This document shows, in pieces, positions 25,963-42,540 of a stretch of 64,000 nucleotides of DNA. A program made the translations under genes and the position numbers. Positions within the stretch are counted from its first letter, which is position 1; each line of letters opens with the position of its first letter. Under the pieces are notes generated by a model that did no database searches, was not told where the DNA came from, and saw nothing but the letters and a program-made list of their open reading frames with translations. Source of the stretch: Candidatus Omnitrophota bacterium (GTDB taxonomy: Bacteria; Omnitrophota; Omnitrophia; Omnitrophales; Aquincolibacteriaceae); NCBI GenBank assembly GCA_043732705.1, contig JAYTHE010000029.1, positions 3,251 to 67,250 of the forward strand. Direction: 5' to 3'.

Positions 25963-28900
25963 TTAAGCTGAAATATCGATCAATTCGCCTGCTTTGAGCA
26001 AGGCTTGCACGACAACCATCACCGACCAACCACCGTTCGGACGGCGCTGAAGGCCTTGAATACGCTGGTTGAGATAATTTTGTGCGGCAACAATATCGCC
26101 TAGTGCGGCGGCTTGGCGCAAATCACGTATCATCGCCACCAAAACTTCATAGTCTTCTGCTGAAACCGCATTTAAAAGTTCCAAAACAATTTTGCCGCGA
26201 ATATTTTTTAAGATTGAATTCGAAGTTAAGAGCACAGCTACACCAGGTTTTGCAGCCCATGTCGCAACCTCGGTTTGATTCCCAACAATCACAAGCGCAC
26301 TCATCCAATTCTTCGCTTTGTTCTTCTGTTCAACGGATAACCCTGATTTCAAATTGGTCAATTTATTCCGAATGCGATCGCGCAAGCCGCCCTTCATGTC
26401 TAATAAAATCAAAAGCCCCGCTGTATCTTTCAAAACGGCATAGAGACCCTTGGCATCATTTGCTTCGAGCAATAAATCCACATACGCGGAATCCAGAATA
26501 AGCTGCGTATTATTTTGGACAAATTTTGATTGAGGCGCCGCCAATGTTTTGCTTGGTGCTTGCTGCGCAAGCACTCCAACTATCGGCTGAGGAATTTCAT
26601 CGGCAAAAGCTTTCGCACCTGTCCATGTCATAATCAAAGCAATTGCATCGCTTGTAGCAAGCTCCATCAAAAACTGCCGCGGCACAATACCGCGCATAAT
26701 CCAAACCAATGTTGGTAAAATCGCCACACGCGTCTGCAGAGGCTGTCTTGTAATTTGAGCTTCACCAAAAACCGGCCTTTGCTCTGACCGCCGAATAACC
26801 CGCGGCGCATAAATCAAACGCGCCTGATTCCCCAGTGATGGGCTCGGTGTCAGGTCTTTTGGAAGACTTCGCACTTCGGAGCGAGCTAAATAATAGTAAG
26901 CCACGGTTTCTAACCCTTTATTGCCAATTTGTTTTGCGAAAATTTTCCCTGAACGGCTCAACTCAGCAAAAAGAACTCTTGCTTCCGCAACTTTGCTATC
27001 GTTTTCAATGCCATATCTCCCCCCATCGATAGCTTTGGAAAGCAGCTGCACAGCCTGCTTCGCTTTAACAATGTTGGCGGGAGTTTGGTCTTTTAAGAAA
27101 ATGAGCGTCACAGCTGCTATAAAAACCAACACGCTTCCAAGCAACCCGGTAAGCGAGCTTGCTGAAGCCGAAATATTTGTCATGGCCGTCGCGAGGCTTA
27201 TCAACCATGCCCCCAAAGTCATGGTCACGCCCGCCGCCAAAACCGTAACAATCCATAATTTCAATGATTTTTGTTTTACCGCATCAGATTGCTGCCACGC
27301 CACAGCCTTACCTCCTAGCTGTCTTGAAAGATTGACAAACTGCTGCCAATTATTATCAACCCGCGCTTCGGAGCGAGCCAATCTCATCCAAATATAAGCT
27401 CCAGTCATTATTTCCGGTAAAGAGGCATCCGTAAACTCGTTTTGAAATTTTTGTTTGAGCAATTCCAAAAGTTTTCGTGTGTTTTCTAAATTAGCCTCAG
27501 TTTCGCCGTCATGATAATAAATTTTAAGTTCGATATTTTTTTCTTCTCCTGCCATTTCAACTTCAAGTTTTTTGAAATTTGGATTTCCACGAAAATAATT
27601 CTCAGCCGCTTGCCTTATAGCCTCTCGAAAAAGAAGGTCTTCCACACCACTATAAATGGCGGTATCGCTGTCAGGATTTGAGGCGGTTGACTCAGCGTCA
27701 TTTTTTCCAATTACAAACCACGCTTTTGCTTTGGACTCCACGGTGGACGATGAGCTTGAACCTTCAGGAAAAAATAGTTCCTGAAGCTCCGGAGAAGGCG
27801 CCTTGGGATCTAACAAAATTGTGGGTACCGCAATTTGTCCGAAAGCATGCGCCCCTTGGAGTGACTTTCGGAAATCTGCTAGCGAACCAGGAACTGTTTC
27901 ATCGGCATCGACATCGACCACTTTTTTACGGGCGAGAAGAACCGCTTTCCAATAGTCCGCGCTTTCTGAAAACTCCTCCGGCTGATAAAAAAGAACCCCC
28001 ACAATCTCGACTGCATCCGGAAAAACTGCGCCATCCACATTGGCAAGTATCTGTCTAATCGCCGCAGTTTTTTTCCTTTCAAACGGATTAGTAACAGGCG
28101 CATATCGAGTCAGTTGATTTTTGCCAACATTACCATTGCCCGGCTGGCGACCGGTAGACGACCCACGCACAGTTTGATTCTCGCCTCGCACAAGCCAAGC
28201 AGACGGAATCAGCCGAACAATCAACGTGGCTGCCAAAACACTGAGCAATAAATATAAAAATGGATTTGCATGTATCAAATTCCATAAGACTCCAAAATGA
28301 ATGCAAAAAAATGCGACAGGAATAATGGCTGCCGTGATCAATCCCCTTTTATAAATGACTCGGATTGCGTGGTTCTGCTGCGAAGGAGAAGCTAATTTAA
28401 ATAAATCCGGAAAAATAATTATCAGAAAGTCCCTCAGAAGAAAATAGAATGCCGCGGCAGTCCCAAATGCTATGCCCATATTAGAAAAGTATGAGTGCTG
28501 CGAGCCAACCATGCCGTTTCTTGATAAAATCGCACCCACAGCACTGCTCAAATCCATTGCCAGAATTAAAGTCACCACCCTCATGGTCCATGGCGCATGA
28601 CCTTGTCTGTGTTCGGAACGCTTAGGCGGAATGACGTGTCCGGACGAAGGCTGACCGTTACCAAAATGGGTTGGGAGAGGAGCGTTTTTTACCTGCGGAA
28701 TTGAAAACGGACTACGCATTTTGTTGCCATATCCATATGTCGTAAAAGTCATCGGCCTAGGTCCTGCGTGCTCCATACTACGACGCACCGCTTCTGTGAA
28801 TTGCGCGCAACTACCCAAGATTCCAGCGATTGAAACTGACAGCAACATCCTCACGAGTGAAGAAATTCCCAGCCGTTTATTGAACCGCATTTCGGAGCGC

Positions 28901-31900
28901 AATAGCTTTGGAACGAGCTCGCGCAACACAAACAATCGAAAAAGTGCCGGAGAGTTTTTACCTTCCCCGCGCATCACTTCTAAATCTGCGCTCGCATCAT
29001 CCGGCACAGAATAGCGCTGAACAAATTTTTTGAAAGCCGCACGGTCTTCATCTGAAATCTCGTGAGGGATAATTTTGCGGCCGTCTTTCTTTGATGGATC
29101 TGGTGCATTGACCAAAATAAATTCCAGAATTTTATCTTTTTCTTGAAAGGCGCGTATCCAAAGAACCCGGGGATCAAAAAACGACTTGATCATCTCAGCC
29201 TCAACGCGCGATGCATTTTGCAAACGCGCAACCGCTTGAGAAAAAATCGGGGCATGCGCGCCAAGATTGATAATATTCCACTCACTCCAAAAATGCGCGC
29301 GATACCTGTAAAACAGTTGACCACCCTCAACCACAATAATTTGATGATTTACTCCTGCTTCTACAGTCTGTTTTCCGCGCGATTCAGAGCGGGCCTTCGC
29401 TTCATACAAAGAAAAATAAACTCTGCCGCTATCGCCCGGCTCGGTTTTTTGATCCCAGCTGATTGTGACCTGGGATGCTGCCCGGGTACGCGCGACACGC
29501 AGATTTTGCAAACTAAAATTCACGCTTCTTGCGCCGGATTCGATTTTGACCAGCTCCATAACGTCGGGATTTCCGCGAGCGGGACGAAAATCCAAAAACA
29601 TATCGGTGCCCGATAAAATATTTTCAACCGCTGCGGTGGCCTTTGCACGGGCCGTGGAAGAAGGCAGACTTCTGATTTGGCCTATAAGATGCGCCTTTAA
29701 GTTTGTTCTTACGTCGAGATGAGTAACCAGGTTCAACTTCCATTTTTTCTGCAATTTCTCTCTGGAAACTAAAAGCATCGTTGCGCCGTAACCTCTTACT
29801 TCAGAGCGAACGGGAATCGAGAATTTGATTTTACTGCCCGAAACTTCAACTTTAACAGGCTTGGTTTGGCGTTGAGCAATGCGGTCGGTTGGGCGCTGTC
29901 TTGGCGAGCCTTCCGGTGAAAGAACGTAGACCTCTTCATTCCGCAATTGTTCGTTCACGACCACACCCCAATTACCGGTGGGGGCATAGGTCTGCGTAAG
30001 AGCTTCGCGAAAAGCGCTTAATTCCCCGGTTTGATTTACGATAAAGATCAAGCGGCGGGTTTTCAAAAGGCCCTTCATCAAATTACGAACATACCCCAAA
30101 TCGTCAGGCAAAATTATCCAGGCCTGTAAAGCTTGAATCAACTCAGCCTGTTTCTTCAAAAGCGCAGGGTCGGCCTCATTGACATTTCGCGCACCACCAG
30201 CTAAAAGATCGATAAGGAAAATGCGCTCACCGCGATGTTTATAAGTACCTTGCCCAGCAGCCTCAACATGCTGAAAAAATTCGTCGGTCACTTCACTTAC
30301 GAGCTTATCGTCTAAATTGAATTCTATTTCGCGTGTTTCGGAGCGGGCTTTGATTTTTGAAGTTGCGGCTTCAAGCAAGCGTGCTTTACGCTGAGCAAGG
30401 TCTGCATCCGAAATCCGGGCTGTAGCTCCCCCATTCGCGCCCCACTGCGATTCATAATTCAAATCAATATTCCGGTGTGCGTTTAAAAAGCCGCCGCTGG
30501 GGCCAAAATATTTAACCCCCCTGAATTCAACGGGGCCTCCTTTTCCGGAAAAAACTTCTAATTGAATCAAGCTCTCATCTCCATTTGCGCCACCGTAAAA
30601 TTTCCATAGCTTGTATTTTGTGCCAGGCACATTTTCGACTTTGAATCTCGTTGCATTTTGAACGAGAGCCAGAACTTCTTCGTAGCTAATTGATTCTCGT
30701 GATTCAGAGCGACTTTTTGTCTTCTCGCCACGTTTTTTAAAAGTTGCCATGTTGTGATTACGGCGCGCTGCGTGAAGAAAGCGCCTATTTCTTTCATCCC
30801 GCCTTTCATCATGCGCCTCTTGCTGTTGAATCGCGTGACTCCTCGCCGCTGGATCCCAAGCTACGCGCATCGTAAGTGGATTCGGTTCGCCGTCCGCGCG
30901 CTGACGCGCCTCGGAACGGCGCGTAAACTCAATGGTCCATATAAATCTTCCATTATTTAAACGAGAGCCTTCACTCTTCAATTGATAATCATATTGAGGA
31001 TATTTCCATGTTAAAAGGCGTCCAAAATTTTCCGCTAAATCCTTTCCAAAATTTCCTTCCGGAACAGAAACCGTCATCTTAAAAGAAACAGGGTTAGCAC
31101 CTGAAAAAGAAATTACCGGGTTGTTGTCATGCATCGCCAGCCCGCGTTCTAAATAAATAAACTCTTTGGGTGCACTACCTTGTGTCCACAGAGGTGTGCC
31201 CTGCATTTGCCCAAGCCCTTTTGAAGTGAGCGGCTCACTTTGAATTGCGCTTAAATGTTCCTGAACGGCATTCATCGCTCGCACACCCAAGGTTTGCAGT
31301 TGAGCATCCGTGGCGCCGCTTGTTTCTTCAGCCTTAAAATCCAAACCAAAAGATGTCTTGGCCGTAATCAAAGCTTTGCTGCGGTTTTTTGCAACACTGA
31401 TTTCAAAAACCAGGCCAGGCAAGACTTTGACAACCAAAGTGGGTAGAGAATTTTTTATTTCTTTTGAACTCCATATAATGCGCCCATGGTTCGGAAGAAT
31501 TTTATCCATTTGTGTCAAAAGGCTTCGAAATGCCGGTCTAAAATTTTCTGCAACGTCCGCGACGGCTCCGCTGATCGCGCCATCTGAAAGGCGATGTTCG
31601 GAGCGGGCATCCGGAACTTCAATAATAATTTCAACGTGGTCTCCGGTTAAAGATTCAACACGAGCCGAAAATCCCGGCACAGTAAGCGGCGTCAGGTCGA
31701 GAGATGCACCATATACGGCCGATTGAATATCACTATTTTCACCGTTCAAACCATAGCTTACGGCTAAATGCTTTGTCGGTCCGTCATGATCATGCCCGTC
31801 AACATTATCAAAAATAACCACGCGGCCATTCAAAATTCCCAAACGGAATTCATGGTCAGAGAGAATCGTTGCCATGGGCGATGCTTCATCGCTTAACTGA

Positions 31901-34900
31901 TCCAGGTCGGCAAGCAACCCCGGCTCATTTCTCGTGCCGCGGACTGCATCAAAATTGTCATCGTTTGCATCAACTAAAAACATTTCAATGGGCGCGCCCT
32001 TTTTTAAAGCAATCGGTTTTGTCCGTTTTGCCGTTAATACTATTTCACGAACTTCAGAGCGAACAGCACGCGCGCTTTCGAAAGCAGCCTGAATTGCTTC
32101 TTGTGATTTCACACCGCGAATGGCCTCGCCGCTTAGAAGTAGTTGTATTTTTTGCTCAAGCGTTGCCCAATTAAAAATTTGGAGAAGCTTTAAAGTGTTC
32201 TTAATCCGGCCGACAAGGTTCGCTTTATTTCCTGATTCAATGTGTGCAATAAAAGCCGCCCATTGTGGGCTTATTTTTAGAAGCCCACGCTTTTCTAAAA
32301 TTTCCCGCATCAGCGCAATGCTTTTTTCTCCAACTCGATCGGTTGTCAAATCACCAGCTTTTAATTTTGTCAGCAGTTGCCCCATATCCGTGATTGGCGA
32401 TGCGCCATCCGACAATTGATTCTTAGCGAACCCGGCAAGCCTGCGGTCTATTCGAGCCATTTCAAAAAATAAATCATTCAGCTCATAGGCCAATCCCTCT
32501 TTGCGTCTTTTTTGAAAAACAAAAAATGCTTTAGCCCAATTCAACCCTGTTTTTCGAATGTGCTGTATGGTTTGACTGGAATTCTTCCCTAGCTTTCCGC
32601 GCAATTGACTCACGCTAAGGAATTCTTCACCGCTCAAAGGAAACTGTCCTTTTAATACCGCGATTTCATCTTTTGTCAGCGGTGATTCTGTTGAATTAAA
32701 AAGCTGTTCGCGGAATTCCTGGTTACTAAGAAATGCCGGTCTTCGCGGCGTTTGCCGGAATTCCGAGCGGACGGTACCCGCAACAGAAGGGGCCGATTCG
32801 GTGCGTAAAATAAGGTGCCCAGCTTTGAGGTCAATTAAACCTTGATAAGCGTTGCTGAGAAACAAGTCCTGCCTTGTGCCGTCGCTTCGAATCATCCAGG
32901 GTACTCCGCCATGGATTTCATCATAATTCAAAGGGCGAAGCGGGTTTAATCCACCATCGATCAGTTGAGCTCCGATAACTTGGCGATCTTTAACCCAAAA
33001 CACAATGTCTTGTCTATTCTGGCCGCGAAACGCAGCAAGATTCAGCCCTTCAAACATTGTTCCAAACTTAAAATTACTAACAGTAACAATTTGAATAACT
33101 TTTCCGTCTAAATGACTCGCACGCGTTTGATCCATGATAACTTTTTCTATCTTCGGATCCCAATACCACGAGCGAAATGCAGGCAACCAAATAGGCGAAA
33201 ACATTAACAGAGCAAATATGCTAGCAATGCTTGCGGGAATAAGAACAGCAATAACCCGTATGATTAAACTAAAAGATGTTCGACCCAAAAATCTCAACCT
33301 TTTCGAAAAATAAGAATAGTTAGCATCATTCTTTAATAGGGTCACAATATGGATTACGCTTTCCAAACTCTTTAAGGCTTCCGGCTGATCCTGCGCATCT
33401 GTCTTAAGAAAAAATTTAATCTGCCATTTGAGCACTGTTCCGCCAAGAGTCCACTCATCTACCAATTCATCAAATTTCGCCGGCATCGTACTTAAAAAAT
33501 TTCGCACATCCGCAAGCATTTCCGGTTGTTTCGAAGCATCAAAACCTTTGTTTTTCAGAAGGGACTGAAACCCAATTGCTTCGTTCTCAATACCATCAAG
33601 CACATTTAAAAATTTGGAAGTTCTCTTGCCCATTTGAAGAAAACGTGATTCTGAACGCGCTAAATTGCCAAACCAATTTTTTTCCTCGATTGCGGCGTCT
33701 TTCGCATCGGCGCTGCCATGAAAACCATTCGGGCCATAACCCACCTTACCGGAATAAGGAATGCCCTCTTTTTGTCCAAGCATACCGCGCAGTGTATCTT
33801 TGCCGGCTTTGGCGGGATTCGTATCGCCCAAGCGAATTCTAAAATCAGCGATGGCTTTTTGTTTTGTCCCGGCGGGAGCTAAAAGCGGCGCGATTTCTAA
33901 AACAATAATCGTTTTTTGTTCAGCCCAGGTTTGACGCATTTGGGGATAATGGCCGTTGATAACAACAACATCTTCTTCGCCGCCACCGCGTTTTTTAAGA
34001 TGCATTTTAGCGACATAAGCGCCTTCTCCGATTTTGTTGCGGCGATCAACAGTCCAAACCGGCTGGCCAGCATCGTCTTTTTTAGGAGGCGCAAGACTAT
34101 CCCATGCGCCCGCGAGTTCATCCGCCGTAACATTGTATTTTTCTAAAACTACGTCAGCGGGAAGGATAATAGCCGCGGCACCATAAATATGTTCACTCGT
34201 AGCTTTCAAGTTGGCATCTTGTGAACTAAAGCCTTTTGAAGCATATCCCGCCATTAAACCATAGTGCTGATCCACTTTTTTAGAACGCGCGGCAAATTCA
34301 CCCGACATCGCGACACCGCGCACAATATAAAAACCATCATCGTTTAAAATTTTCAGAGACTTTTCAAAAAATTCCGGGCTTTGCGGGCCGCCAAATTGTT
34401 TGAAAATGAAAACTGCTGCTTCATCCAATTTTAACCGGCTTCGCGGCACAGTCTCCCTGTCCACATAAATCGGAACTGGCCCTCCCTTCACGTCTAGAGC
34501 TGAAAGTTTTGCTAACTCTTCAGCGAGTTTCCGCAATTCGGAACGCACCGGCTTAAACACAAATTGCCAGCCTAGCGGAGCTTGTCCCGGGTGCCTGGAA
34601 TGAGCTGTCTCAACTTCGGTCCCTAAAAATTCCCGGACCAAGGCTTCTTGTTCATCCGAAAAAGTGATTCTTATTTTTGCTAAGTCCGGGTTATAAGAAA
34701 AAGCAACGAGCGGGTTTTGATCTGCGCGTTCATATCCGGGAATATTTCTGCTTCTCAAATGAAAAGCAAACGGCATGCTGGCATTCTCACGATTCCAGGA
34801 CATCCAAACCATTTCACCCTTGGCGTCTTTCATTTCAAGCGCCCAGCCATTGCCATCCGGATAAACGGAAAGCATCGCGTAAGTTTGTCCGAGCGAAAGT

Positions 34901-37900
34901 GTTCTCTGGGCGGATACTGCTCCTGATGTGTATTTCCAAGAATCTAAATTCCCGCGCTGCCCCTGAATCAATTTATATAAATCATCCATGGTCATGCGCA
35001 TTTCGGAGCGAGCGGAATAAAGCAATTTTGGATAATGGTCTTCGATTGTCTGCTTTAACTTTTCCTGAAAGATCTTGTCAGCGGGTTGCGATTCCAAAAT
35101 CAGCCAGCGCTCCTCGGTCTTCGAGTCAGCCGGACTTTCAATCACCACTGTTAAGCCGGCCCGGTAAGCGATAACTGAAAGAATATCAAAAATTTCCTTT
35201 GATCTCCCTGTTAACTCCACGTTGCGGGCCGCATCAATCGAGACTTCCGAAACATTCAAAGGAATTCGAATTTCATTGCCTTTAAAATCAATGACCAGCT
35301 GATTCATTCGCAATGTGGTAATAAAATTTTGAACGCTTGAATCCTGCTGATTAGAAGCGTTATTCCAAGGCCACCCTTGGCCATAGCCGAATCGCATTTC
35401 AGAGCGGGCGGCTGAGTCAAGCAAAACAGCAGGCTGGGGCGCTGGTTGCGTGTTATTTTTATTTTGGGACTGCTCCTCGCTCATCTGCCGCCTGAATTCC
35501 GCTTCCTCTTCTTTAGTAAGCCGCCTTACAGCTCCACTTGTATCCGGCATATTATCCGCCGCGGGGTTTGGATTTCTGAGTGGTTCCAAAAGTAAATATC
35601 CGGCATAAAGGACACCCACCGCCGCAAGACTAATCAACGCGGCCGGCACCTTGCGTATTTCAGACCGGGCAGTCGGTTCAAGAAATAAAAGCTGGGCATG
35701 CAGGCCCAAGTGATGCATATTCGCATCGTGAGCAAAGTGATCCGTAACTGGAATGCCCGCGCGAAAATCGTACACCAAGTCTTGCGCACTAGGAGCTTTG
35801 TCGTAAAAGTGAACTTTTTCTTCGCCCGGAATGGAATAGTCCCCCACCGAATAAAACACATCATCGCGTGCGGCCAATAACGAACTCATATTTTGAACAT
35901 TACGCGCCCACACTTTATTAGCCTGTTGATCCCAAGGTTCGATTCCCAAATAAAAGAAAGGTGTTAGAATGCGGCCGGTTTTAGGATGGCTGCGGGAAAA
36001 CATAACCGTGTCATAATGATCTGTGCGATGCAAACGCAACATTGAACCTTCTCCGAAAAGAAGTTGATTCACAGGATCTTTTAAATAATTTTCAAGCATT
36101 GAAAATTGCGGAAGATTCCAGCTTCTGAATGCTTCCAACGTTTCTGGCGCCAGAAAAACAGCTAAACCCGCCAAGCCAAAAACTTTTTCTTCGCCGTATT
36201 TTTTCGCGGCTTCTTCGCGCGACAATTGACTGATTTCAGCCACCCATGTCGCAAGTTTTTGCGGCAAAGGTTCCCCCTGCTGAATGGGCTTGCGAATTTC
36301 CTTCACCATTCCGACCAAGGGCTCGAGATTGTTCTGTCGATTGAGAATCGCGTTAAACTCGCGCATATATTGCGCGCCCGGATTAAGCGCATTCACAACA
36401 CGGCTTAATTTAACGGCGACTTCCAAATAGGAGCCAAAGTGTGCCGGTTTTTCATGAAATGCGTTGACCTGGTTCAGAAGAACTTCCAGATAAGAACCGG
36501 GCTTATCGTCTTTGGGAATTAAAATGTTACCGGAGCCCGCGACTTTCGGATTAAGAACAATTCCGATTTTCTGAATATTGCCTTCCGTCCAAGCAGGCCC
36601 CATGATGAGCGCGCCATTCACCGCGCCGTTCATTTCAGTAATTTCCGAAGCGCCGGTTTTATAATTAGAATCCGCCACAATAATATGTGAAATGCCTAAA
36701 CCGTCGACTTGTTCTTCCAGGCCGAATCCGGTCCGAACAACTACGCGTCCAAATTTTCTTCCTTGCTCTCTTTCTTCTTTTTCAGCGAGCGTATTGATTT
36801 CAGCCGCCGCTTTCTGCAATTCTTCAAAAACTTTATTCGGTATGGTTTGAACGTTGCCTTCATAAAGTACATTCGCGCCGCTTAAAATCAGTTGGCGAAT
36901 GTTATAAATCGTCCAGGCGCGCTCACGGCCCGATTTCTCATGCACAAACCGTCCTAGGTAAGAAATTACCGGTAAATCAGGATTGAGCTCAGCGTTCCAT
37001 ATCCCTTTATATTTAATATTTAATTCCCGGATACCTTCTTTTTTTGCCGCAATAATCTGCTCACCGGTGGGACGCCAGACATCCACTTCCCCCGGATGAG
37101 GATAAAGCTTCAAAAGCATTTTTCTAAAAAAAGCCGCCGATCGATCCAAGTCATCCCCGTTAGGAACGGAGACCATTCGCGCTTGCGGATCCCTGCGCGA
37201 AACTTCATGCACGTGCGGCGCGGCCACGCCATTTCTTCCGTGAGAAGCGCGCACGCCCTGCGAAGTAGGGTCCATTGAGCCATTGCTGTCGACCGATTCC
37301 ACCGGGCCCCGATTTAAAAAAGTATGCGTGGTAAACCAGACAATTGCTTTTCTTAAAATGTCGGTGGCTTTATCCATTTTTCTTTTTTCGGGAGGCAAAT
37401 AACCGGTCTGTCCGTCATTGCCCCAAATCACCGGCGACTTATAATCGTTTGCGTTTTCACCTTGTTTGGTTTTTTCTAAAATCCGGATCAATTCCAACGA
37501 CGCTTTGGAGAAAAATTCACTAAATTCTTTCCAGGTTGGCAAAGGAAAAGGCGGGTCTTGAATGTCAGGCGAATATTTGTAAAGTGCTGCGGTGTACTTA
37601 CCGCCGTCAAGCAGGTAAACGGGAATGCCGTCTTCGGTTCTCCCTTCTCTGACAATGACTTTCACTTTTGTTCCAAGCACAACCACTTCGAATTCATACA
37701 CCGCTTTTAAATTTTTAATCGGCGTTTCAAGTTTTTCATAATCGATGGGGGTCGTGGATTTGTCCGCGTGAATCTTATGATGATAAAAGCCTTCGATTGT
37801 TACGATTTTTCCACGTTTTGCCAAAAGCTTGTGAATAGCGCGTGTGTGGTATTGCCCGACACGGCCTAAGCCGCCCGCCAGCAGCCATGTCTCGGGCGAA

Positions 37901-40900
37901 ACATAATAAATGCGGCGTCCAATAAGATTCGGCGTGTGGAACTGCATCCATTGATCAATGTAGGCTTCCCATTCCTCCGGAGCTAATAATTCTTCGCCCA
38001 GCATTAAGAAAATTGCGTCCGTCACGCGTAAAGATCCAAATTTTTCAGGGGCAGAGATTAATTGCCGGAGCAATTTCTTCTGATCGTCTTTTTTCATCAT
38101 CGCGACCGCGCGCATGACCGGCCAACGAGATTCAAGCGGATATTTCGGCCAATCATCAGCCGCTTTGTCATAAGCCGCTAAAATTGCAGGCAGGTTCTCT
38201 TTGTTGTTTAAGGCTTCGAGCAATTGTGCTTGAATATAAAATGCCGCGTCCGAACTAAGCGCGGCGGCATCCATATTTTCAAGCAAACCCGTTCGCTGAA
38301 TTTCCGCCCACAAGGCAGTTAATTGATCATTGCTCGCGCCAAGGTTCATATCAATCAAACGCGCGGACATGCGGGGTTTAAGATCAGCTTCCGCGATGGA
38401 GTCACCGTCTTTCTTGGCATCCAGATAAACCCAGACCATGGTATTCATTCTTTGCCAATCCGCCGTGGGAGCATCAAGTCCCATCCAAAGCGATTTGTTC
38501 ATATCCCGTAATTCGGAGCGTTGCGCGGACTCGTTTTGCTTCTCTGCAAGCACGCTTTGAATAAACATCGCCATACCAATCGGGCCAATATTCTTTTGGC
38601 TTAATTTTTGATGCTCTCCTGGCCCCCAGCTCTTTTTCGCAAGATCCTTCTCCGTTAAAATCGTGATTTTTATTTTATCTTGCAGATCGTATTTTCTGAG
38701 CGCATCGAAAATTACTTGTTTAAATACTTCCTTGCGATCTTCACGGACAATTCCACCGCCAAGCACAATCTCATCGGGACTACCTTCGCCCGTCCCTTGC
38801 GTCATAAAATAATGGATAGCCAAATTGCTGGCGTATTTATCAGCAAAGTTACGCAAAACTCTGTTGGCAATTTGGCTTTTTCTGTTTCTAAGCAAAGCGG
38901 ACAGATTATCCGCCAGCGGTTGAACTGGCAGTGCTTCTGCCAAGGGTCTAAATTCGCCTTCCCTCAAATCATTCCAGTGATTCCTGTTATTAGTGGCCTG
39001 AGTAATCGCGGAATGGAGCATTCCAGGAATGCCGGTGAAAGCTTCTGAGTCATAAATCGCGTCGCCCGGTCGGCCAAAATTGAAAATACAATGTCCCACC
39101 TCCGTTGGCGCATTCATCGGAATACCGTTAACTAACTCTGCGTTACCAAAACCCGTACCAAGCCAATCCACGCGAACGTGGCCCTTTAATAATTCAGGTT
39201 TAATTGCAGCAAGGGCCCAAGCCACCCCCGAACCAACACCGTCCATGTCATTGCGAATCAATACTTCTCCGTGATTTAACCCTAGTTTTTCCTTTACCCG
39301 CACTGGTAAAATTAGTCCAAAATGCTGAACTTGCCTCATGCTCCATCGTTTTTCAGTAGGAATCTGCCCTAAAGTTTCCATTTGATTTTCGGTTAAGTTC
39401 TTGGCGCCGGGGGTGTCAAGACCAACGCCGTCAAAATTAATCCCTGCCCCCAATACTGCTTTTCTAATTTCGTCTATGTGGTCTGCGATACGCATAGCAA
39501 ACTGTTCGGGCGATTCCGCTATAAATTCGCCTCCCACAGTTTTTAGAACAGTCGGAAGCGTTTGCAAGTCTTCTGGAATCTCTATCATTTTTCCGTTACT
39601 TATCACCGCAAACTTTGCCGAACCACCGCCTAAATCCATCCCGAGAAAATTTCCTTTTACATCCGCTTGTAAAGCAATGCCCAGATCCAACTTCTTTTTC
39701 TCTTTTTCTTGAGGCGTCAGGTCCGATATTTTTTTAAAAGATATTTTTTCACCACCGCCATTTGCGTAATTCTGAACTCCAAACGCCGTTACCGTGTCCT
39801 GCGATAATTCCGTGCTTTGATTCACTCTTGATAAATCGCCCTGAGTTAGCAAATCGGCGATTCTACTTTCTTTTACCAAATCAGGCTCACCTTCAACTCC
39901 GACCGCAATAAATGAAGTGCCATATCGAATCGAAAGGTTGTAGGCCCACGCGGCTATATAACGATAAGCTGATTCTTGAAACGCGGGATCTTGAAGCAAC
40001 GACCGCGACATCGGAATTTGAAGTTTGACACCGCGCGCGATTTGAATCGTCACATTCATTTTGTCAGCCGCCTCTGCAGGCCGATACTGATTAAGCAATC
40101 CAAACCAAGTTAATGCGTCCGTGCTAACTTTTAAAATCGGCTTGATTTCTTCTAACCGCATTTCGGAGCGCAGAGCTGAGCGGATATTCACCGTTACAGT
40201 ATTGGCGTTTGTTGAAAAATCCCAGGTAATCGCATTGCGTCCCTTTTGCCTTGCGCGGGAAAACTCCCACTTGACTGCTTTCGCAAGAGACCGTCTAGAC
40301 TCTGCCATCACTTTACCCTCTAGCAAAAACAGATTGATTTGAATTCCGATTTCACCATTTACGTAAAAAGCTATTGTTTTTATTTCTGAAGTAGCCGTGG
40401 ATTCAATTTTTCGCAGAATTTCACGCAATAGACGCTCTTCCTGCCGAAAAATCTCTTGCCTTGCAGACACCCTGCCTCTAACGTAGAAGAAAAGCGCCCC
40501 GAGCAATCCGGCGGCCATCCATTTCCAATCATGCCGCAGCCAGGCAAAAATTCCCGTCACAGCCAAAAGAGCCGGATAGAAAAACTTATTCGCTCTTATT
40601 TTTGCTACGGCAGCAGAAAATGTTTTCTTCCATTCCACGCGCATTTCGGAACGCTGAGAACGGCTTTTCGCTTTAACCGAGGACGAACTTCTTTGAACGA
40701 AGCGTCGCACCGGAGATGCTTCTTTACGCGATGAATTAAAAGCGCCGCTGCGCGCAGTAAGTACAAGAGTTTGCAATTCAAAACGATGCATCGCCTCGCC
40801 TCCAACGGGGTCGGCGCCATAAGGAGACTCAAGGTTTCGATTCAGAGTGTTAGGAATAGTATGCGCCATCGTTTGCGCGATACCCGGCATGCGGTACGCG

Positions 40901-42540
40901 GCACTTTCCTGCAGCATACTTTTCAAATAAGCCTGATAACCCTTTTCATCGGGACCGGAAATGGCGGGCGTCACAACAACGTAAGTATAACCTTCCTTTT
41001 CAAGCTGTTTGCGCATCGCGTCCGTATGAAATCCGCCGGTCACTACAACCGCGAACTTTGCGGGATTTTTTTTCAAATAATTCTCTGTATTTTGAATCAT
41101 GAGTGTATCGCGATTTTTCGCGCCTTGATAAAAAGCAACTGCTGTTTGAAAAACGCCATCGATCTCTCTCAGATGCACAAATTGAGATCTTTTCGCGGAA
41201 ACAGTTTTTATTTTTTGCAAACGCCTCGCGAGTGCGGACGGCTGGATTTCTGAAACCACAGGGGTCAGTCCCCGCTGCTTCGCATCAAGGACAGACCCCT
41301 CTGCATTATTTTTTCTGATTTTTAAAAAATCGCCGGGAGTGAGTTGTAACGCGAGAAGTTTTTTGAGCAGGCGATAATCTGAAAAAATGGCGAGCATTTC
41401 TTTTTCGCTTTCATTACGCGCCAATTTATCCATGACAAGTTTTTCAATTTGTTCGATTTCAGATGCAAATGCAGCGGGACGAACTTCGCTTTGCAGGATA
41501 AGCAGACCCATAAAACGCATGACATTAGGATAAGTTTTAAAATTAAAATCATGCGGAAAATAACGCAGCATCTCAGCAAATGTATTTTCTGTTTCAGGTT
41601 CGGGTAGTTGAATACTCTCCCCCGCGCTATTCAAAAGTTTTTCAACTTTCTCATAGAGGCCGGAGACCGGAGACCGGAGACCCGGTAAATACCTTTCGGC
41701 TTGCTTTAAAAAAGCCTTTTTCTCCACTTCATATTTTGAAGCATTCCATTCTTTGGAAATTTTTTGAATTTTAAAAAACCGTACTAACATCGGCCAGGGT
41801 AGCTGCCAAGCTGCGTCCGTTAAATCAACTTCCAGGTATTTTTGCGCGTTTTTCTTTAACTCTTCAGTCCAGGCCTCGTAAGAAACCATTCCCAGCTCAT
41901 GCTGTTCAGCTCTTGTAAGAAAACTGCGTAGCGCGGGATCAAAAATAGCCGCGGCCTTTTCCATTTCCCGGTCAAACGAATCTAAAAATTCCTGCGAACC
42001 TTCACGCGCGCGCAGAACGGCTGCAAACTGACGTTGATTGACCCAATACGCAAATTCGTTTTCAATCCCCTGCGCTAAAGCGGCAGGATGGTCTAATAAA
42101 TACAGTTCGGGGCCCTTAATCAAAGCTTGCATGGCAAGCAAATGCGCGGCCTTTTGTGTACGTTCAGGATTACCAGGGAAAAAATTAATGCGCTGCGGAT
42201 CCAGCTTTCCCGCGGCACCTTCCAGCAATACGGGATACGAACCATATTGCGCGGCAAACCGGTCAAGAATTTTTTGAATTTTGACCTGCGCCTCATAATG
42301 TCCATGCGCGGTTTGAAGATGAACAATGATTCCTTTATAACCCGGATGGAGACTATCAATGTGGCCTAATTTAGTGGGCAATGTAAGCGCAAGGCCTTGG
42401 CTGAATTGGGAGAAAGCTGGAATAGAAATTTCAGCCTGCGGTGCAATCACCCCGGCATAAGAGAAATTAGTGGGAATATAAGCGATCAGCGTCACGATCG
42501 CCGTGACACGCCAAAATTTTCCGAGAGACTTTTGAAGCAT
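25963..42540 (-). CDS. Giant 5,525-aa multi-domain, multi-TM protein of unknown function with about 21 recurrent [AVL]-R-S-E-x-R motifs
   Basis: One uninterrupted 16,578-nt ORF with no stop on the minus strand, which is not achievable by chance at this GC. It has an N-terminal hydrophobic signal anchor and at least five clusters of TM helices. Three domains are recognisable: TraB/GumN/Tiki-like at about 40950..42400, ASKHA ATPase (GMDLGGGSAKF ... IVLGGGI) at about 38740..39690, and a divergent alpha-glucan-phosphorylase-like (GT35-like) domain (IYYVSPETWLLAGGLG ... IPVYLLDGG ... TGASEITEMNGAVNGALIMGPAW) at about 36450..37910. A sigma-70-like promoter candidate lies upstream. Confidence 0.8.
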   Translation of the reverse strand: MLQKSLGKFWRVTAIVTLIAYIPTNFSYAGVIAPQAEISIPAFSQFSQGLALTLPTKLGHIDSLHPGYKGIIVHLQTAHGHYEAQVKIQKILDRFAAQYGSYPVLLEGAAGKLDPQRINFFPGNPERTQKAAHLLAMQALIKGPELYLLDHPAALAQGIENEFAYWVNQRQFAAVLRAREGSQEFLDSFDREMEKAAAIFDPALRSFLTRAEQHELGMVSYEAWTEELKKNAQKYLEVDLTDAAWQLPWPMLVRFFKIQKISKEWNASKYEVEKKAFLKQAERYLPGLRSPVSGLYEKVEKLLNSAGESIQLPEPETENTFAEMLRYFPHDFNFKTYPNVMRFMGLLILQSEVRPAAFASEIEQIEKLVMDKLARNESEKEMLAIFSDYRLLKKLLALQLTPGDFLKIRKNNAEGSVLDAKQRGLTPVVSEIQPSALARRLQKIKTVSAKRSQFVHLREIDGVFQTAVAFYQGAKNRDTLMIQNTENYLKKNPAKFAVVVTGGFHTDAMRKQLEKEGYTYVVVTPAISGPDEKGYQAYLKSMLQESAAYRMPGIAQTMAHTIPNTLNRNLESPYGADPVGGEAMHRFELQTLVLTARSGAFNSSRKEASPVRRFVQRSSSSVKAKSRSQRSEMRVEWKKTFSAAVAKIRANKFFYPALLAVTGIFAWLRHDWKWMAAGLLGALFFYVRGRVSARQEIFRQEERLLREILRKIESTATSEIKTIAFYVNGEIGIQINLFLLEGKVMAESRRSLAKAVKWEFSRARQKGRNAITWDFSTNANTVTVNIRSALRSEMRLEEIKPILKVSTDALTWFGLLNQYRPAEAADKMNVTIQIARGVKLQIPMSRSLLQDPAFQESAYRYIAAWAYNLSIRYGTSFIAVGVEGEPDLVKESRIADLLTQGDLSRVNQSTELSQDTVTAFGVQNYANGGGEKISFKKISDLTPQEKEKKKLDLGIALQADVKGNFLGMDLGGGSAKFAVISNGKMIEIPEDLQTLPTVLKTVGGEFIAESPEQFAMRIADHIDEIRKAVLGAGINFDGVGLDTPGAKNLTENQMETLGQIPTEKRWSMRQVQHFGLILPVRVKEKLGLNHGEVLIRNDMDGVGSGVAWALAAIKPELLKGHVRVDWLGTGFGNAELVNGIPMNAPTEVGHCIFNFGRPGDAIYDSEAFTGIPGMLHSAITQATNNRNHWNDLREGEFRPLAEALPVQPLADNLSALLRNRKSQIANRVLRNFADKYASNLAIHYFMTQGTGEGSPDEIVLGGGIVREDRKEVFKQVIFDALRKYDLQDKIKITILTEKDLAKKSWGPGEHQKLSQKNIGPIGMAMFIQSVLAEKQNESAQRSELRDMNKSLWMGLDAPTADWQRMNTMVWVYLDAKKDGDSIAEADLKPRMSARLIDMNLGASNDQLTALWAEIQRTGLLENMDAAALSSDAAFYIQAQLLEALNNKENLPAILAAYDKAADDWPKYPLESRWPVMRAVAMMKKDDQKKLLRQLISAPEKFGSLRVTDAIFLMLGEELLAPEEWEAYIDQWMQFHTPNLIGRRIYYVSPETWLLAGGLGRVGQYHTRAIHKLLAKRGKIVTIEGFYHHKIHADKSTTPIDYEKLETPIKNLKAVYEFEVVVLGTKVKVIVREGRTEDGIPVYLLDGGKYTAALYKYSPDIQDPPFPLPTWKEFSEFFSKASLELIRILEKTKQGENANDYKSPVIWGNDGQTGYLPPEKRKMDKATDILRKAIVWFTTHTFLNRGPVESVDSNGSMDPTSQGVRASHGRNGVAAPHVHEVSRRDPQARMVSVPNGDDLDRSAAFFRKMLLKLYPHPGEVDVWRPTGEQIIAAKKEGIRELNIKYKGIWNAELNPDLPVISYLGRFVHEKSGRERAWTIYNIRQLILSGANVLYEGNVQTIPNKVFEELQKAAAEINTLAEKEEREQGRKFGRVVVRTGFGLEEQVDGLGISHIIVADSNYKTGASEITEMNGAVNGALIMGPAWTEGNIQKIGIVLNPKVAGSGNILIPKDDKPGSYLEVLLNQVNAFHEKPAHFGSYLEVAVKLSRVVNALNPGAQYMREFNAILNRQNNLEPLVGMVKEIRKPIQQGEPLPQKLATWVAEISQLSREEAAKKYGEEKVFGLAGLAVFLAPETLEAFRSWNLPQFSMLENYLKDPVNQLLFGEGSMLRLHRTDHYDTVMFSRSHPKTGRILTPFFYLGIEPWDQQANKVWARNVQNMSSLLAARDDVFYSVGDYSIPGEEKVHFYDKAPSAQDLVYDFRAGIPVTDHFAHDANMHHLGLHAQLLFLEPTARSEIRKVPAALISLAAVGVLYAGYLLLEPLRNPNPAADNMPDTSGAVRRLTKEEEAEFRRQMSEEQSQNKNNTQPAPQPAVLLDSAARSEMRFGYGQGWPWNNASNQQDSSVQNFITTLRMNQLVIDFKGNEIRIPLNVSEVSIDAARNVELTGRSKEIFDILSVIAYRAGLTVVIESPADSKTEERWLILESQPADKIFQEKLKQTIEDHYPKLLYSARSEMRMTMDDLYKLIQGQRGNLDSWKYTSGAVSAQRTLSLGQTYAMLSVYPDGNGWALEMKDAKGEMVWMSWNRENASMPFAFHLRSRNIPGYERADQNPLVAFSYNPDLAKIRITFSDEQEALVREFLGTEVETAHSRHPGQAPLGWQFVFKPVRSELRKLAEELAKLSALDVKGGPVPIYVDRETVPRSRLKLDEAAVFIFKQFGGPQSPEFFEKSLKILNDDGFYIVRGVAMSGEFAARSKKVDQHYGLMAGYASKGFSSQDANLKATSEHIYGAAAIILPADVVLEKYNVTADELAGAWDSLAPPKKDDAGQPVWTVDRRNKIGEGAYVAKMHLKKRGGGEEDVVVINGHYPQMRQTWAEQKTIIVLEIAPLLAPAGTKQKAIADFRIRLGDTNPAKAGKDTLRGMLGQKEGIPYSGKVGYGPNGFHGSADAKDAAIEEKNWFGNLARSESRFLQMGKRTSKFLNVLDGIENEAIGFQSLLKNKGFDASKQPEMLADVRNFLSTMPAKFDELVDEWTLGGTVLKWQIKFFLKTDAQDQPEALKSLESVIHIVTLLKNDANYSYFSKRLRFLGRTSFSLIIRVIAVLIPASIASIFALLMFSPIWLPAFRSWYWDPKIEKVIMDQTRASHLDGKVIQIVTVSNFKFGTMFEGLNLAAFRGQNRQDIVFWVKDRQVIGAQLIDGGLNPLRPLNYDEIHGGVPWMIRSDGTRQDLFLSNAYQGLIDLKAGHLILRTESAPSVAGTVRSEFRQTPRRPAFLSNQEFREQLFNSTESPLTKDEIAVLKGQFPLSGEEFLSVSQLRGKLGKNSSQTIQHIRKTGLNWAKAFFVFQKRRKEGLAYELNDLFFEMARIDRRLAGFAKNQLSDGASPITDMGQLLTKLKAGDLTTDRVGEKSIALMREILEKRGLLKISPQWAAFIAHIESGNKANLVGRIKNTLKLLQIFNWATLEQKIQLLLSGEAIRGVKSQEAIQAAFESARAVRSEVREIVLTAKRTKPIALKKGAPIEMFLVDANDDNFDAVRGTRNEPGLLADLDQLSDEASPMATILSDHEFRLGILNGRVVIFDNVDGHDHDGPTKHLAVSYGLNGENSDIQSAVYGASLDLTPLTVPGFSARVESLTGDHVEIIIEVPDARSEHRLSDGAISGAVADVAENFRPAFRSLLTQMDKILPNHGRIIWSSKEIKNSLPTLVVKVLPGLVFEISVAKNRSKALITAKTSFGLDFKAEETSGATDAQLQTLGVRAMNAVQEHLSAIQSEPLTSKGLGQMQGTPLWTQGSAPKEFIYLERGLAMHDNNPVISFSGANPVSFKMTVSVPEGNFGKDLAENFGRLLTWKYPQYDYQLKSEGSRLNNGRFIWTIEFTRRSEARQRADGEPNPLTMRVAWDPAARSHAIQQQEAHDERRDERNRRFLHAARRNHNMATFKKRGEKTKSRSESRESISYEEVLALVQNATRFKVENVPGTKYKLWKFYGGANGDESLIQLEVFSGKGGPVEFRGVKYFGPSGGFLNAHRNIDLNYESQWGANGGATARISDADLAQRKARLLEAATSKIKARSETREIEFNLDDKLVSEVTDEFFQHVEAAGQGTYKHRGERIFLIDLLAGGARNVNEADPALLKKQAELIQALQAWIILPDDLGYVRNLMKGLLKTRRLIFIVNQTGELSAFREALTQTYAPTGNWGVVVNEQLRNEEVYVLSPEGSPRQRPTDRIAQRQTKPVKVEVSGSKIKFSIPVRSEVRGYGATMLLVSREKLQKKWKLNLVTHLDVRTNLKAHLIGQIRSLPSSTARAKATAAVENILSGTDMFLDFRPARGNPDVMELVKIESGARSVNFSLQNLRVARTRAASQVTISWDQKTEPGDSGRVYFSLYEAKARSESRGKQTVEAGVNHQIIVVEGGQLFYRYRAHFWSEWNIINLGAHAPIFSQAVARLQNASRVEAEMIKSFFDPRVLWIRAFQEKDKILEFILVNAPDPSKKDGRKIIPHEISDEDRAAFKKFVQRYSVPDDASADLEVMRGEGKNSPALFRLFVLRELVPKLLRSEMRFNKRLGISSLVRMLLSVSIAGILGSCAQFTEAVRRSMEHAGPRPMTFTTYGYGNKMRSPFSIPQVKNAPLPTHFGNGQPSSGHVIPPKRSEHRQGHAPWTMRVVTLILAMDLSSAVGAILSRNGMVGSQHSYFSNMGIAFGTAAAFYFLLRDFLIIIFPDLFKLASPSQQNHAIRVIYKRGLITAAIIPVAFFCIHFGVLWNLIHANPFLYLLLSVLAATLIVRLIPSAWLVRGENQTVRGSSTGRQPGNGNVGKNQLTRYAPVTNPFERKKTAAIRQILANVDGAVFPDAVEIVGVLFYQPEEFSESADYWKAVLLARKKVVDVDADETVPGSLADFRKSLQGAHAFGQIAVPTILLDPKAPSPELQELFFPEGSSSSSTVESKAKAWFVIGKNDAESTASNPDSDTAIYSGVEDLLFREAIRQAAENYFRGNPNFKKLEVEMAGEEKNIELKIYYHDGETEANLENTRKLLELLKQKFQNEFTDASLPEIMTGAYIWMRLARSEARVDNNWQQFVNLSRQLGGKAVAWQQSDAVKQKSLKLWIVTVLAAGVTMTLGAWLISLATAMTNISASASSLTGLLGSVLVFIAAVTLIFLKDQTPANIVKAKQAVQLLSKAIDGGRYGIENDSKVAEARVLFAELSRSGKIFAKQIGNKGLETVAYYYLARSEVRSLPKDLTPSPSLGNQARLIYAPRVIRRSEQRPVFGEAQITRQPLQTRVAILPTLVWIMRGIVPRQFLMELATSDAIALIMTWTGAKAFADEIPQPIVGVLAQQAPSKTLAAPQSKFVQNNTQLILDSAYVDLLLEANDAKGLYAVLKDTAGLLILLDMKGGLRDRIRNKLTNLKSGLSVEQKNKAKNWMSALVIVGNQTEVATWAAKPGVAVLLTSNSILKNIRGKIVLELLNAVSAEDYEVLVAMIRDLRQAAALGDIVAAQNYLNQRIQGLQRRPNGGWSVMVVVQALLKAGELIDISA

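Follow-up and report, generated by a model that had tools for sequence, protein, structure and literature searches.

The giant gene and its recurrent motif

The 64,000-nt stretch of Candidatus Omnitrophota DNA analysed here (hereafter the window; contig JAYTHE010000029.1 of assembly GCA_043732705.1) contains a single giant open reading frame (ORF) on the minus strand (25963-42540; 16.6 kb, 5,525 amino acids, aa). The N-terminus of the encoded protein is signal-peptide-like, and the whole protein contains 3 Cys residues. A pentapeptide, RSExR, recurs 21 times along the chain and parts it into 22 modules (Table 1). Upstream of the giant gene are the genes for GlmU and Prs, and beyond these two ABC-transporter permease genes and that for ClpX, while L25, Pth, L9, DnaB and BamA are encoded downstream. 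We describe the distribution of RSExR, its variants in related proteins and its codon usage, and consider whether the giant ORF could encode a polyprotein that is processed at this motif.

From the composition of the giant protein, 0.09 occurrences of RSE.R would be expected, so the excess over chance pointed out in an earlier note on this DNA was borne out; all 21 positions listed there agreed with ours within 1-2 nt, and its counts for the residue preceding the motif (Ala in 9 copies, Val in 4) were correct. The tripeptide RSE itself occurred 21 times (1.46 expected) and was followed by xR in 21 of 21 cases. Among the gapped pentamers of the giant protein, RSE.R topped the list with its 21 copies, and the runner-up had 4. 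The remaining 16,282 ORF residues of the window, encoded by the neighbouring genes, contained no RSE.R, and variants with a single substitution (Lys for Arg, Thr for Ser or Asp for Glu) were no commoner than background. At the nucleotide level, the form CGYTCYGAA was present in 16 copies in the giant gene, every one of them in frame; there was none on the opposite strand of the gene and only 2 elsewhere in the window. An antisense or frame-independent DNA element was ruled out because all copies are in frame and the opposite strand is without any.

A genome scan with L25 showed that the nearest genomes are Candidatus Omnitrophota metagenome-assembled genomes; an exact-match look-up with L25 found nothing. 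The three closest of the loci retrieved, L001, L002 and L003, whose L25 is 77-90% identical, have the arrangement of the window, with a giant ORF immediately ahead of the L25 gene (L001:3-9869, L002:3-6770 and L003:1-9786). A search of these homologous giants for the motif, as suggested earlier, recovered 13, 7 and 11 RSExR, respectively. At L004 and L005, from more distant Omnitrophota, GlmU-Prs-L25-Pth are contiguous and no giant gene is present. Because the giant gene is absent from the latter two loci and present in the former three, it is an insertion between prs and L25 (ctc)-pth of a conserved operon.

The window protein and its three syntenic counterparts have only the last module of ~270-300 aa in common (78, 29 and 37% identity for L001, L002 and L003, respectively). 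The other modules were unalignable even against the genome with a 90% identical L25, in which the last module is 78% identical. The module content of the giant genes turns over extremely fast between close relatives. The last module ends in ...SA and always follows the final junction (window, L001-L003 and P0001, one of the proteins from the GT5 search described below). Strands alternating with helices were predicted for it, and it had no Pfam or PDB match and resembled no known family. In metagenome scans with this C-terminal module, A1 was too divergent and A2 was without relatives.

In the pooled alignment of 52 motifs from the window and L001-L003, R, S, E and R were invariant, x was mainly A, M, S, L or V, and the flanks had practically no information content. 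The spacing was irregular, with module lengths of 31-951 aa, and the modules were not mutually alignable, save for a few recent duplicates in the homologues. The motifs are not tandem repeats, which agrees with what had been said of them before.

Table 1. Features of the giant ORF in the window, all on the minus strand
Feature	Position (nt)	Strand	Protein position and remarks
Giant ORF	25963..42540	-	5,525 aa, 22 modules
Module 0, TIKI/TraB-like signature (T-A-H79, E107, R477, GGFH505)	40639..42540	-	aa 1-634, ends in first RSEMR
RSEMR	40639..40653	-	aa 630-634
RSEMR	40156..40170	-	aa 791-795
RSELR, GT5-module start boundary	38506..38520	-	aa 1341-1345; counterpart of RSEIR 3740 in P0003
Module 3, starch-synthase-like (PF08323)	35668..38505	-	aa 1346-2291
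RSEIR, GT5-module end boundary	35653..35667	-	aa 2292-2296; counterpart RAEIR 4714 in P0003
Transmembrane (TM) helix just past RSEIR 2292-2296		-	aa 2300-2318
RSEMR	35392..35406	-	aa 2379-2383
RSEMR	34996..35010	-	aa 2511-2515
RSELR	34531..34545	-	aa 2666-2670
NDK domain (PF00334)	33667..33957	-	aa 2862-2958, profile positions 45-131 of 135
RSESR	33643..33657	-	aa 2962-2966
RSEFR	32755..32769	-	aa 3258-3262
RSEVR	32047..32061	-	aa 3494-3498
RSEHR	31591..31605	-	aa 3646-3650
RSEAR	30904..30918	-	aa 3875-3879
RSESR	30697..30711	-	aa 3944-3948
RSETR	30331..30345	-	aa 4066-4070
RSEVR	29794..29808	-	aa 4245-4249
RSESR	29377..29391	-	aa 4384-4388
RSEMR	28885..28899	-	aa 4548-4552
Lipoprotein-type signal-peptide-like segment FNKRLGISSLVRMLLSVSIAGILGSC	28807..28884	-	aa 4553-4578, directly after motif; read from sequence
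RSEHR, then 4-TM-helix cluster	28606..28620	-	aa 4641-4645
RSEAR	27361..27375	-	aa 5056-5060
RSEVR	26869..26883	-	aa 5220-5224
RSEQR, last junction	26776..26790	-	aa 5251-5255
Last module	25966..26775	-	aa 5256-5525

Additionally, four antisense ORFs of 157-165 aa with TTG starts are located inside the giant gene on the plus strand (26921-27397, 29143-29616, 34677-35174 and 40771-41253); these long antisense ORFs are probably spurious. Elsewhere in the window, the minus strand (56366-58522) encodes a 718-aa member of the prolyl-oligopeptidase family (S9) that has a beta-propeller domain, and nothing was found that connects this protein to the giant one.

Modules and their boundaries

Pfam searches of all 22 modules at E-values up to 1 identified only a GT5 starch synthase (PF08323) and an NDK domain (PF00334), found instead of the ASKHA and GT35-like domains to which parts of the protein had been assigned earlier and for which there was no Pfam match. 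The NDK domain ends 4 aa short of the next motif. In L003, a complete UDP-glucose dehydrogenase was recognized, with profile position 1 beginning 8 aa past an RSEAR. None of the ~14 Pfam domain hits spanned a motif. Moreover, the breakpoints of internal duplications in the homologues coincide exactly with motifs: a 182-aa module of L002 is duplicated (102-283 = 1779-1961; 85% identity over the full length) between unrelated neighbouring modules, a 70-aa module of L003 is present in duplicate, and in a duplicated two-module block of L001 the homology sets in at the motif.

The GT5 module (aa 1346-2291) served as the query of an exhaustive HMMER search, which retrieved 249 proteins, and the family analysis covers the best 150 of them, mostly 0.8-7.6 thousand aa long; P0015 and P0017 are Candidatus Omnitrophota proteins by NCBI name. 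The window protein has only module 0 and the GT5 module in common with its best matches, P0002 and P0003, and the GT5 module occupies a different place in each of the three proteins (module 3 in the window, 11 in P0002 and 13 in P0003). In P0003 the alignment of this module begins and stops at the flanking motifs; in P0002 the module is likewise flanked by motifs, with the alignment overshooting the upstream one by ~20 aa. An upstream motif was found at or near the start of the query GT5 module in 17 of 18 motif-bearing homologues; in five of them the distance was ~10 aa at most, and in the others the motif lay 15-73 aa further upstream.

Homologous module cores amounting to 12,784 residues contained no motif, compared with 23.3 expected at random (P about 8e-11). 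Within the conserved N-terminal modules of the family (N-modules, described below), there were 2 compared with 19 expected at random (P0017 aa 336 and P0063 aa 300); in both exceptions R[SA]ExR is located in the large helical insertion of the N-module. RSExR marks boundaries between independently evolving modules, and its position is equivalent across lineages. The earlier suggestion that the motifs fall at module boundaries, rather than inside conserved folded cores, was thus upheld by the duplication breakpoints, the orthologous boundaries, the ends of the Pfam domains and the empty cores.

Cysteine was very scarce (0-3 residues in 2.5-7.3 thousand aa) in the window ORF, P0002, P0008, P0015, P0089, P0106 and L108, and many GT5 homologues without the motif contain 10-30 Cys.

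A scan of metagenomes with a codon-level DNA pattern added 8 long ORFs that are poor in Cys and contain 2-10 RSExR each, all in frame. Meanwhile, the control set, ~70 ORFs with a length of 700 aa or more from other, unrelated contigs of the same scan, contained 1 RSExR altogether. The tests run here refuted the idea that RSExR is a chance or compositional feature or the remnant of a tandem repeat, to which we assign almost no probability. Nothing speaks for it beyond Arg, Ser and Glu being common residues, and it is contradicted by the excess of the motif over expectation, its absence from the neighbouring genes and near-absence from the control ORFs, the unalignable flanks and irregular spacing, and the retention of the motif at orthologous boundaries across proteins. 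The motif is not the proteome-wide quirk that had been considered as a possible refutation.

Most of the matches of the DNA-pattern scan were arrays of clustered regularly interspaced short palindromic repeats (CRISPR), in which CGCTCCGAAGAGCG sits by chance in the repeat, and these were set aside. L022:7880-13980 is an example and many others were found in L006-L125, with a ~36-nt repeat (...TTTCAATCCGCGCCCCGCTCCGAAGAGCGGGGCGAT) and a period of ~71 nt. Other searches returned less. The region of aa 2250-3750 had no match in a word-indexed homologue search and none in a genome scan, and PDB sequence searches with both protein halves, the C-terminal module and N-module profiles were negative. 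A profile built from the motif only scored just 20-36 bits on true positives in a local test.

Motif variants and codon usage at the junctions

In other lineages, Ala stands in place of Ser: P0015 contains 18 RAExR and 3 RSExR, P0106 contains 16 and 2, and P0003 contains 8 of each. At one orthologous boundary, the window protein has RSEIR and P0003 has RAEIR. Because Ala replaces it, the Ser is neither a nucleophile nor a phosphosite, and a role as catalytic nucleophile or modified residue was ruled out by RAExR. Further giant proteins without R[SA]ExR carry GAR[LMIVA] (22 copies in P0008, where 1.6 were expected, 10 in P0019 and 7 in P0148). The full form of this sister-clade motif is G-A-R-[L/M/I/A]-[A/S], found in P0008, P0012, P0019 and P0148, and it flanks the GT5 module at equivalent places, at a distance of 7-124 aa on the upstream side and 138-152 aa on the downstream side. 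The GAR-type proteins form one clade in the N-module tree. Two chemically unrelated motifs thus occupy equivalent boundaries, which argues for a recognition signal co-evolving with its reader and against a structural element.

The codons of the motif were also constrained. The first Arg (R1) was encoded by CGY in 48 of the 52 pooled motifs (background 50%), and the Ser by TCC in 33 of 52 (background 13%) and never by AGY. In the window, the Ser codons were TCC (12), TCT (6), TCA (2) and TCG (1); that all four TCN codons occur had been noticed before, while the lack of AGY and the strong bias to TCC had been overlooked. When x was Ala, it was encoded by GCG in 15 of 15 cases. The biases at R1 and Ser were still strong once codons outside the motif with identical neighbouring codons were taken as the reference. 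The resulting junction consensus, CGY-TCC-GAA-NNG-CGN, was seen in the window, L001-L003, L053, L058, L108 and others, and in L108 the 15-mers were near-identical in 8 of 8 copies (CGY-TCC-GAA-GTG-CGS). Selection at the peptide level is clear because the residues stay fixed where the codons vary. In this respect the earlier proposal gained strong comparative support, although not in its stricter form of a purely peptide-level selection, since the synonymous sites are constrained too.

The constraint on synonymous sites could mean that the junction is primarily a DNA-level, in-frame recombination joint, in which the ~15-nt CGY-TCC-GAA-NNG-CGN acts as microhomology or target and the peptide is a tolerated linker. 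The near-identical 15-mers of L108, the coincidence of duplication and exchange breakpoints with motifs and the very fast turnover of gene content between close relatives would all fit this explanation. However, the amino acids are invariant despite codon variation (R2, the second Arg, is AGR in 7 of 52, the Ser uses four TCN and R1 four CGN codons), one-substitution peptide variants are merely at background level, and every copy is in one frame and on one strand. Moreover, one and the same protein can contain both RSExR and RAExR, and GARLA is found at equivalent sites, so the constraint appears to be read at the protein level; the motif is also linked to one particular protein module. We consider it improbable that recombination is the primary role; most likely such a role is complementary and not the sole one.

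A strict peptide, a fixed frame and constrained codons are, in combination, also what a mechanism acting on the ribosome predicts. The nascent peptide and the CGC-UCC-GAA codons might cause a programmed ribosome pause or 2A-like skipping of the peptide bond at every module boundary, by which the modules would be parted, or their folding timed, with no need of a protease. We know of no bacterial precedent for this, and five residues are far shorter than known arrest or skipping peptides. In addition, the GARLA-type motif is chemically unlike RSExR, CGY makes up 77% in the neighbouring housekeeping genes, so that the codon preference partly agrees with the housekeeping one, and the G ahead of CGN is a general context bias. 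We regard a translation-level event as very unlikely. Internal translation starts at x were rejected, as x is often encoded by ATG or GTG but by GCG, TCG and ACN too. RNA processing at CGCUCCGAA may be a further possibility.

The N-terminal head module and proposed polyprotein processing

In 27 of the 150 GT5 matches, the very N-terminus is a conserved counterpart of the first ~550 aa of the window protein, and 3 of the 8 ORFs from the metagenome scan have this region too. The same head module was found in proteins of 1.2-1.5 thousand aa, where one to five internal modules precede the last module. In all, the N-module is represented by more than 40 sequences. Among the GT5 matches, 17 of 27 proteins with the N-module were motif-rich, compared with 4 of the 123 that lack it (Fisher P = 3.5e-12), and at least 2 of these 4 exceptions are N-terminally truncated. 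The motif is tightly associated with the N-terminal module. A 'mini' member of the family (P0157, 1,363 aa; L126:6001-10092) consists of the N-module, one cargo and one end module, with two RSExR, and its gene is part of a cluster for the synthesis and export of polysaccharides (Wzy, GT4s and Poly_export); given this location elsewhere, the family is not tied to the prs-L25 locus.

Over 14 diverse copies of the N-module, [D/E]-A-H79, E107, R477 and GG[F/Y]H505 were invariant, with one exception: at the first acidic position, 13 copies have D or E and that of the window has Thr. The spacing from H79 to E107 is 27-30, mostly 28, and that from R477 to H505 is 27-28. The order and spacing of these residues ([D/E]-x-H, Glu at +28, Arg and GxxH at +28) are those of active enzymes of the TIKI/TraB/PrgY/ChaN/erythromycin-esterase superfamily; unlike members of that superfamily, the N-module has a helical insertion of ~330-370 aa that parts its two halves. 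A signature of 2His/2Glu plus Arg has been described for active enzymes of the TIKI superfamily, among them RRSP, with H3902/E3930 28 apart, R4001 and H4030, and Bcr135, with H85/E113 28 apart (PMC6254334). RRSP, an effector of MARTX toxins, is a TIKI-family endopeptidase (PMC6254334). The N-module of P0161 matched PF04187 (Cofac_haem_bdg; ChaN, Tiki superfamily) with E = 5.9e-4 and 20.3 bits, below the cut-off of 27.7 bits, and the alignment covers the R...GGFH region. The TraB-like domain proposed earlier may thus be retained at the signature level, while the window copy itself had no Pfam match, neither to PF01963 (TraB_PrgY_gumN) nor to PF04187.

On this basis, we propose the following scheme. 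A gene of this family consists of the conserved N-terminal module of ~550 aa, a variable string of cargo and, in this sub-lineage, the conserved last module. The cargo string comprises 1 to more than 20 unrelated modules, including GT5, NDK, UDP-glucose dehydrogenase, receiver domains, acyltransferases, membrane or lipoprotein-like segments and much unknown sequence. Every junction is a short, lineage-strict motif, R-[S/A]-E-x-R here and G-A-R-[L/M/I/A]-[A/S] in the sister clade. The ORF would be translated as one chain and then cut site-specifically at the motifs into separate proteins, which would localise by their own signals. More speculatively, if viral polyproteins and MARTX toxins are taken as a guide, the TIKI-like N-terminal module may itself be the cis-acting protease. 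In addition, the 15-nt junction probably provides an in-frame joint for duplication and exchange of modules.

That RSExR is an endoproteolytic processing site and the giant ORF a polyprotein is the best explanation we can offer, with a probability of about 0.5; cleavage itself we infer from sequence. The GT5, NDK, TM and lipoprotein-like modules behave as the independent units of a polyprotein would, in that modules duplicate and move as units. Additionally, some modules open with a signal peptide, lipobox or TM segment right after the motif (e.g., RSEMR|FNKRLGISSLVRMLLSVSIAGILGSC). If left uncut, nucleotide-dependent enzymes such as those of the GT5 and NDK modules would be extracytoplasmic behind a signal peptide, a paradox that cleavage would resolve.

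Several observations weigh against this explanation. The strong synonymous conservation inside the motif is not predicted by a protease site alone, which suggests that the junction DNA doubles as an in-frame joint or that decoding matters. Hydrophobic segments after the motifs were only weakly enriched (5 of 52, compared with 4.4% at random), and the sequence around the motifs was not richer in flexible or polar residues. AlphaFold models of aa 3600-4700 (single sequence) and of the C-terminal module (2 sequences), with predicted local distance difference test (pLDDT) values of 37 and 43, respectively, were unusable. The N-module is apparently exported, so cleavage in the cytoplasm would need another enzyme or another topology. 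Its assignment to the TIKI superfamily is at the signature level, resting on the signature and one sub-threshold Pfam match: the window N-module and 10 other members matched no Pfam family profile, PDB profile searches were negative, and the window copy departs from the signature in its first acid. Finally, the associations between motif and N-module and between motif type and clade could reflect shared ancestry and not function. A long disordered linker at the motifs, as had been envisaged for them, was rejected on the lack of a compositional signal.

By analogy, the head module could be the protease for the junctions, but this part of the scheme is doubtful; to our knowledge, no TIKI-superfamily member heads a polyprotein. 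Only tentatively do we put forward the combined reading, in which in-frame cassettes for dozens of enzymes and membrane proteins, unrelated to one another, are strung together in one ORF and cut by the TIKI-like head at R[S/A]ExR or GAR[LM]A, with the 15-nt junction doubling as a recombination joint that keeps the frame intact. A cutting site and a recombination joint together would explain both the hypervariability of the gene and the conservation of synonymous sites.

Many of the same data would be expected of a protein that is never cut, with RSExR or GARLA serving for docking or recognition in each linker between modules. The partner could be the conserved module at either terminus, a chaperone, a factor for secretion or insertion, or an enzyme that modifies the protein, and binding would organise or export the chain. 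The boundary position and the lineage-specific co-variation with the N-module also fit such an uncleaved short linear motif, and the strictness of the motif is typical of recognition by a single partner. For one giant Omnitrophota ORF, peptides were found and a coat-forming role was proposed (PMC10066038), which needs no cleavage. However, docking leaves unexplained the internal signal-peptide- or lipobox-like starts after motifs and the cytoplasmic-type nucleotide-dependent enzymes behind an export signal, and modification of the Ser is ruled out by its replacement with Ala. Moreover, the candidate partner resembles, at the signature level, only a hydrolase superfamily that contains proteases, although ChaN in that superfamily is a binding protein that is not catalytic. 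We consider the docking alternative unlikely.

The proposed polyprotein resembles MARTX toxins, which the earlier note had put forward as an analogy, in being a large bacterial protein whose unrelated effector modules would be released by a protease domain of the same chain. The inter-effector sites of MARTX toxins are loose (cleavage after Leu), with no strict pentapeptide. The analogy stands in function and fails in architecture: Pfam searches of the whole protein and of its modules revealed neither RTX or glycine-rich repeats nor a C80 cysteine protease domain, the window contains no type I secretion system genes, its annotated neighbours being housekeeping genes, and the candidate protease is N-terminal and TIKI-like. 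Viral polyproteins (picornavirus 3C and potyvirus NIa) are similar in having many units per ORF and a short, strict site at each junction, the sequence of which varies by lineage and co-varies with the protease lineage. They differ in that ours is a cellular chromosomal gene in a housekeeping operon with cargo that is hypervariable between close relatives, the fold of the candidate protease is another one, and cleavage here is a reading of sequence. In prohormones with dibasic sites, nematode polyprotein allergens and cyanobactin precursors, a repeated short site flanks each released unit. Those multi-copy precursors repeat similar small units, whereas the giant ORF strings together large, unrelated, enzyme-sized modules.

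Among the giant proteins described so far, the window protein is most comparable to the 'multi-enzyme metabolic cluster' class (10.64898/2026.06.07.730766), which is also from Omnitrophota, with many unrelated enzyme domains per ORF, PF08323 being the most frequent of them, TM helices scattered in between and proteins that are unique in sequence. At 5.5 thousand aa, it lies under the 10-thousand-aa threshold of that catalogue. Post-translational cleavage of Omnitrophota giant proteins has been suspected already; West-Roberts et al. (10.1101/2023.11.21.568195) suggested C39 and S8 peptidase domains and stated that information on cleavage points is lacking. Unlike the proteins of these giant-gene papers, that of the window has no C39 or S8 peptidase domain. 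A term-based search of both papers (10.64898/2026.06.07.730766 and 10.1101/2023.11.21.568195) found no punctuating motif, variant, TIKI-like head or cleavage points, and full-text literature searches returned nothing relevant for 'RSExR' or for Omnitrophota together with polyprotein. A polyprotein strategy of this sort may therefore be new for bacteria, none having been found described in the literature searched.

The Omnitrophota, an uncultured phylum whose members are probably predators or parasites, are characterized by giant ORFs (up to more than 100 thousand aa), and the literature leaves undecided whether the giant proteins act whole or cut. The junction motif supplies concrete, testable cleavage points and allows computational splitting of such proteins into tractable units for structure and function prediction. 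The finding also nominates a protease, the TIKI-like N-terminal module, and suggests that the gene evolves by in-frame shuffling of cassettes at a fixed joint. If confirmed, it would mean that a cellular organism expresses genes in the manner of polyproteins and that the TIKI/TraB fold has a new class of substrate.

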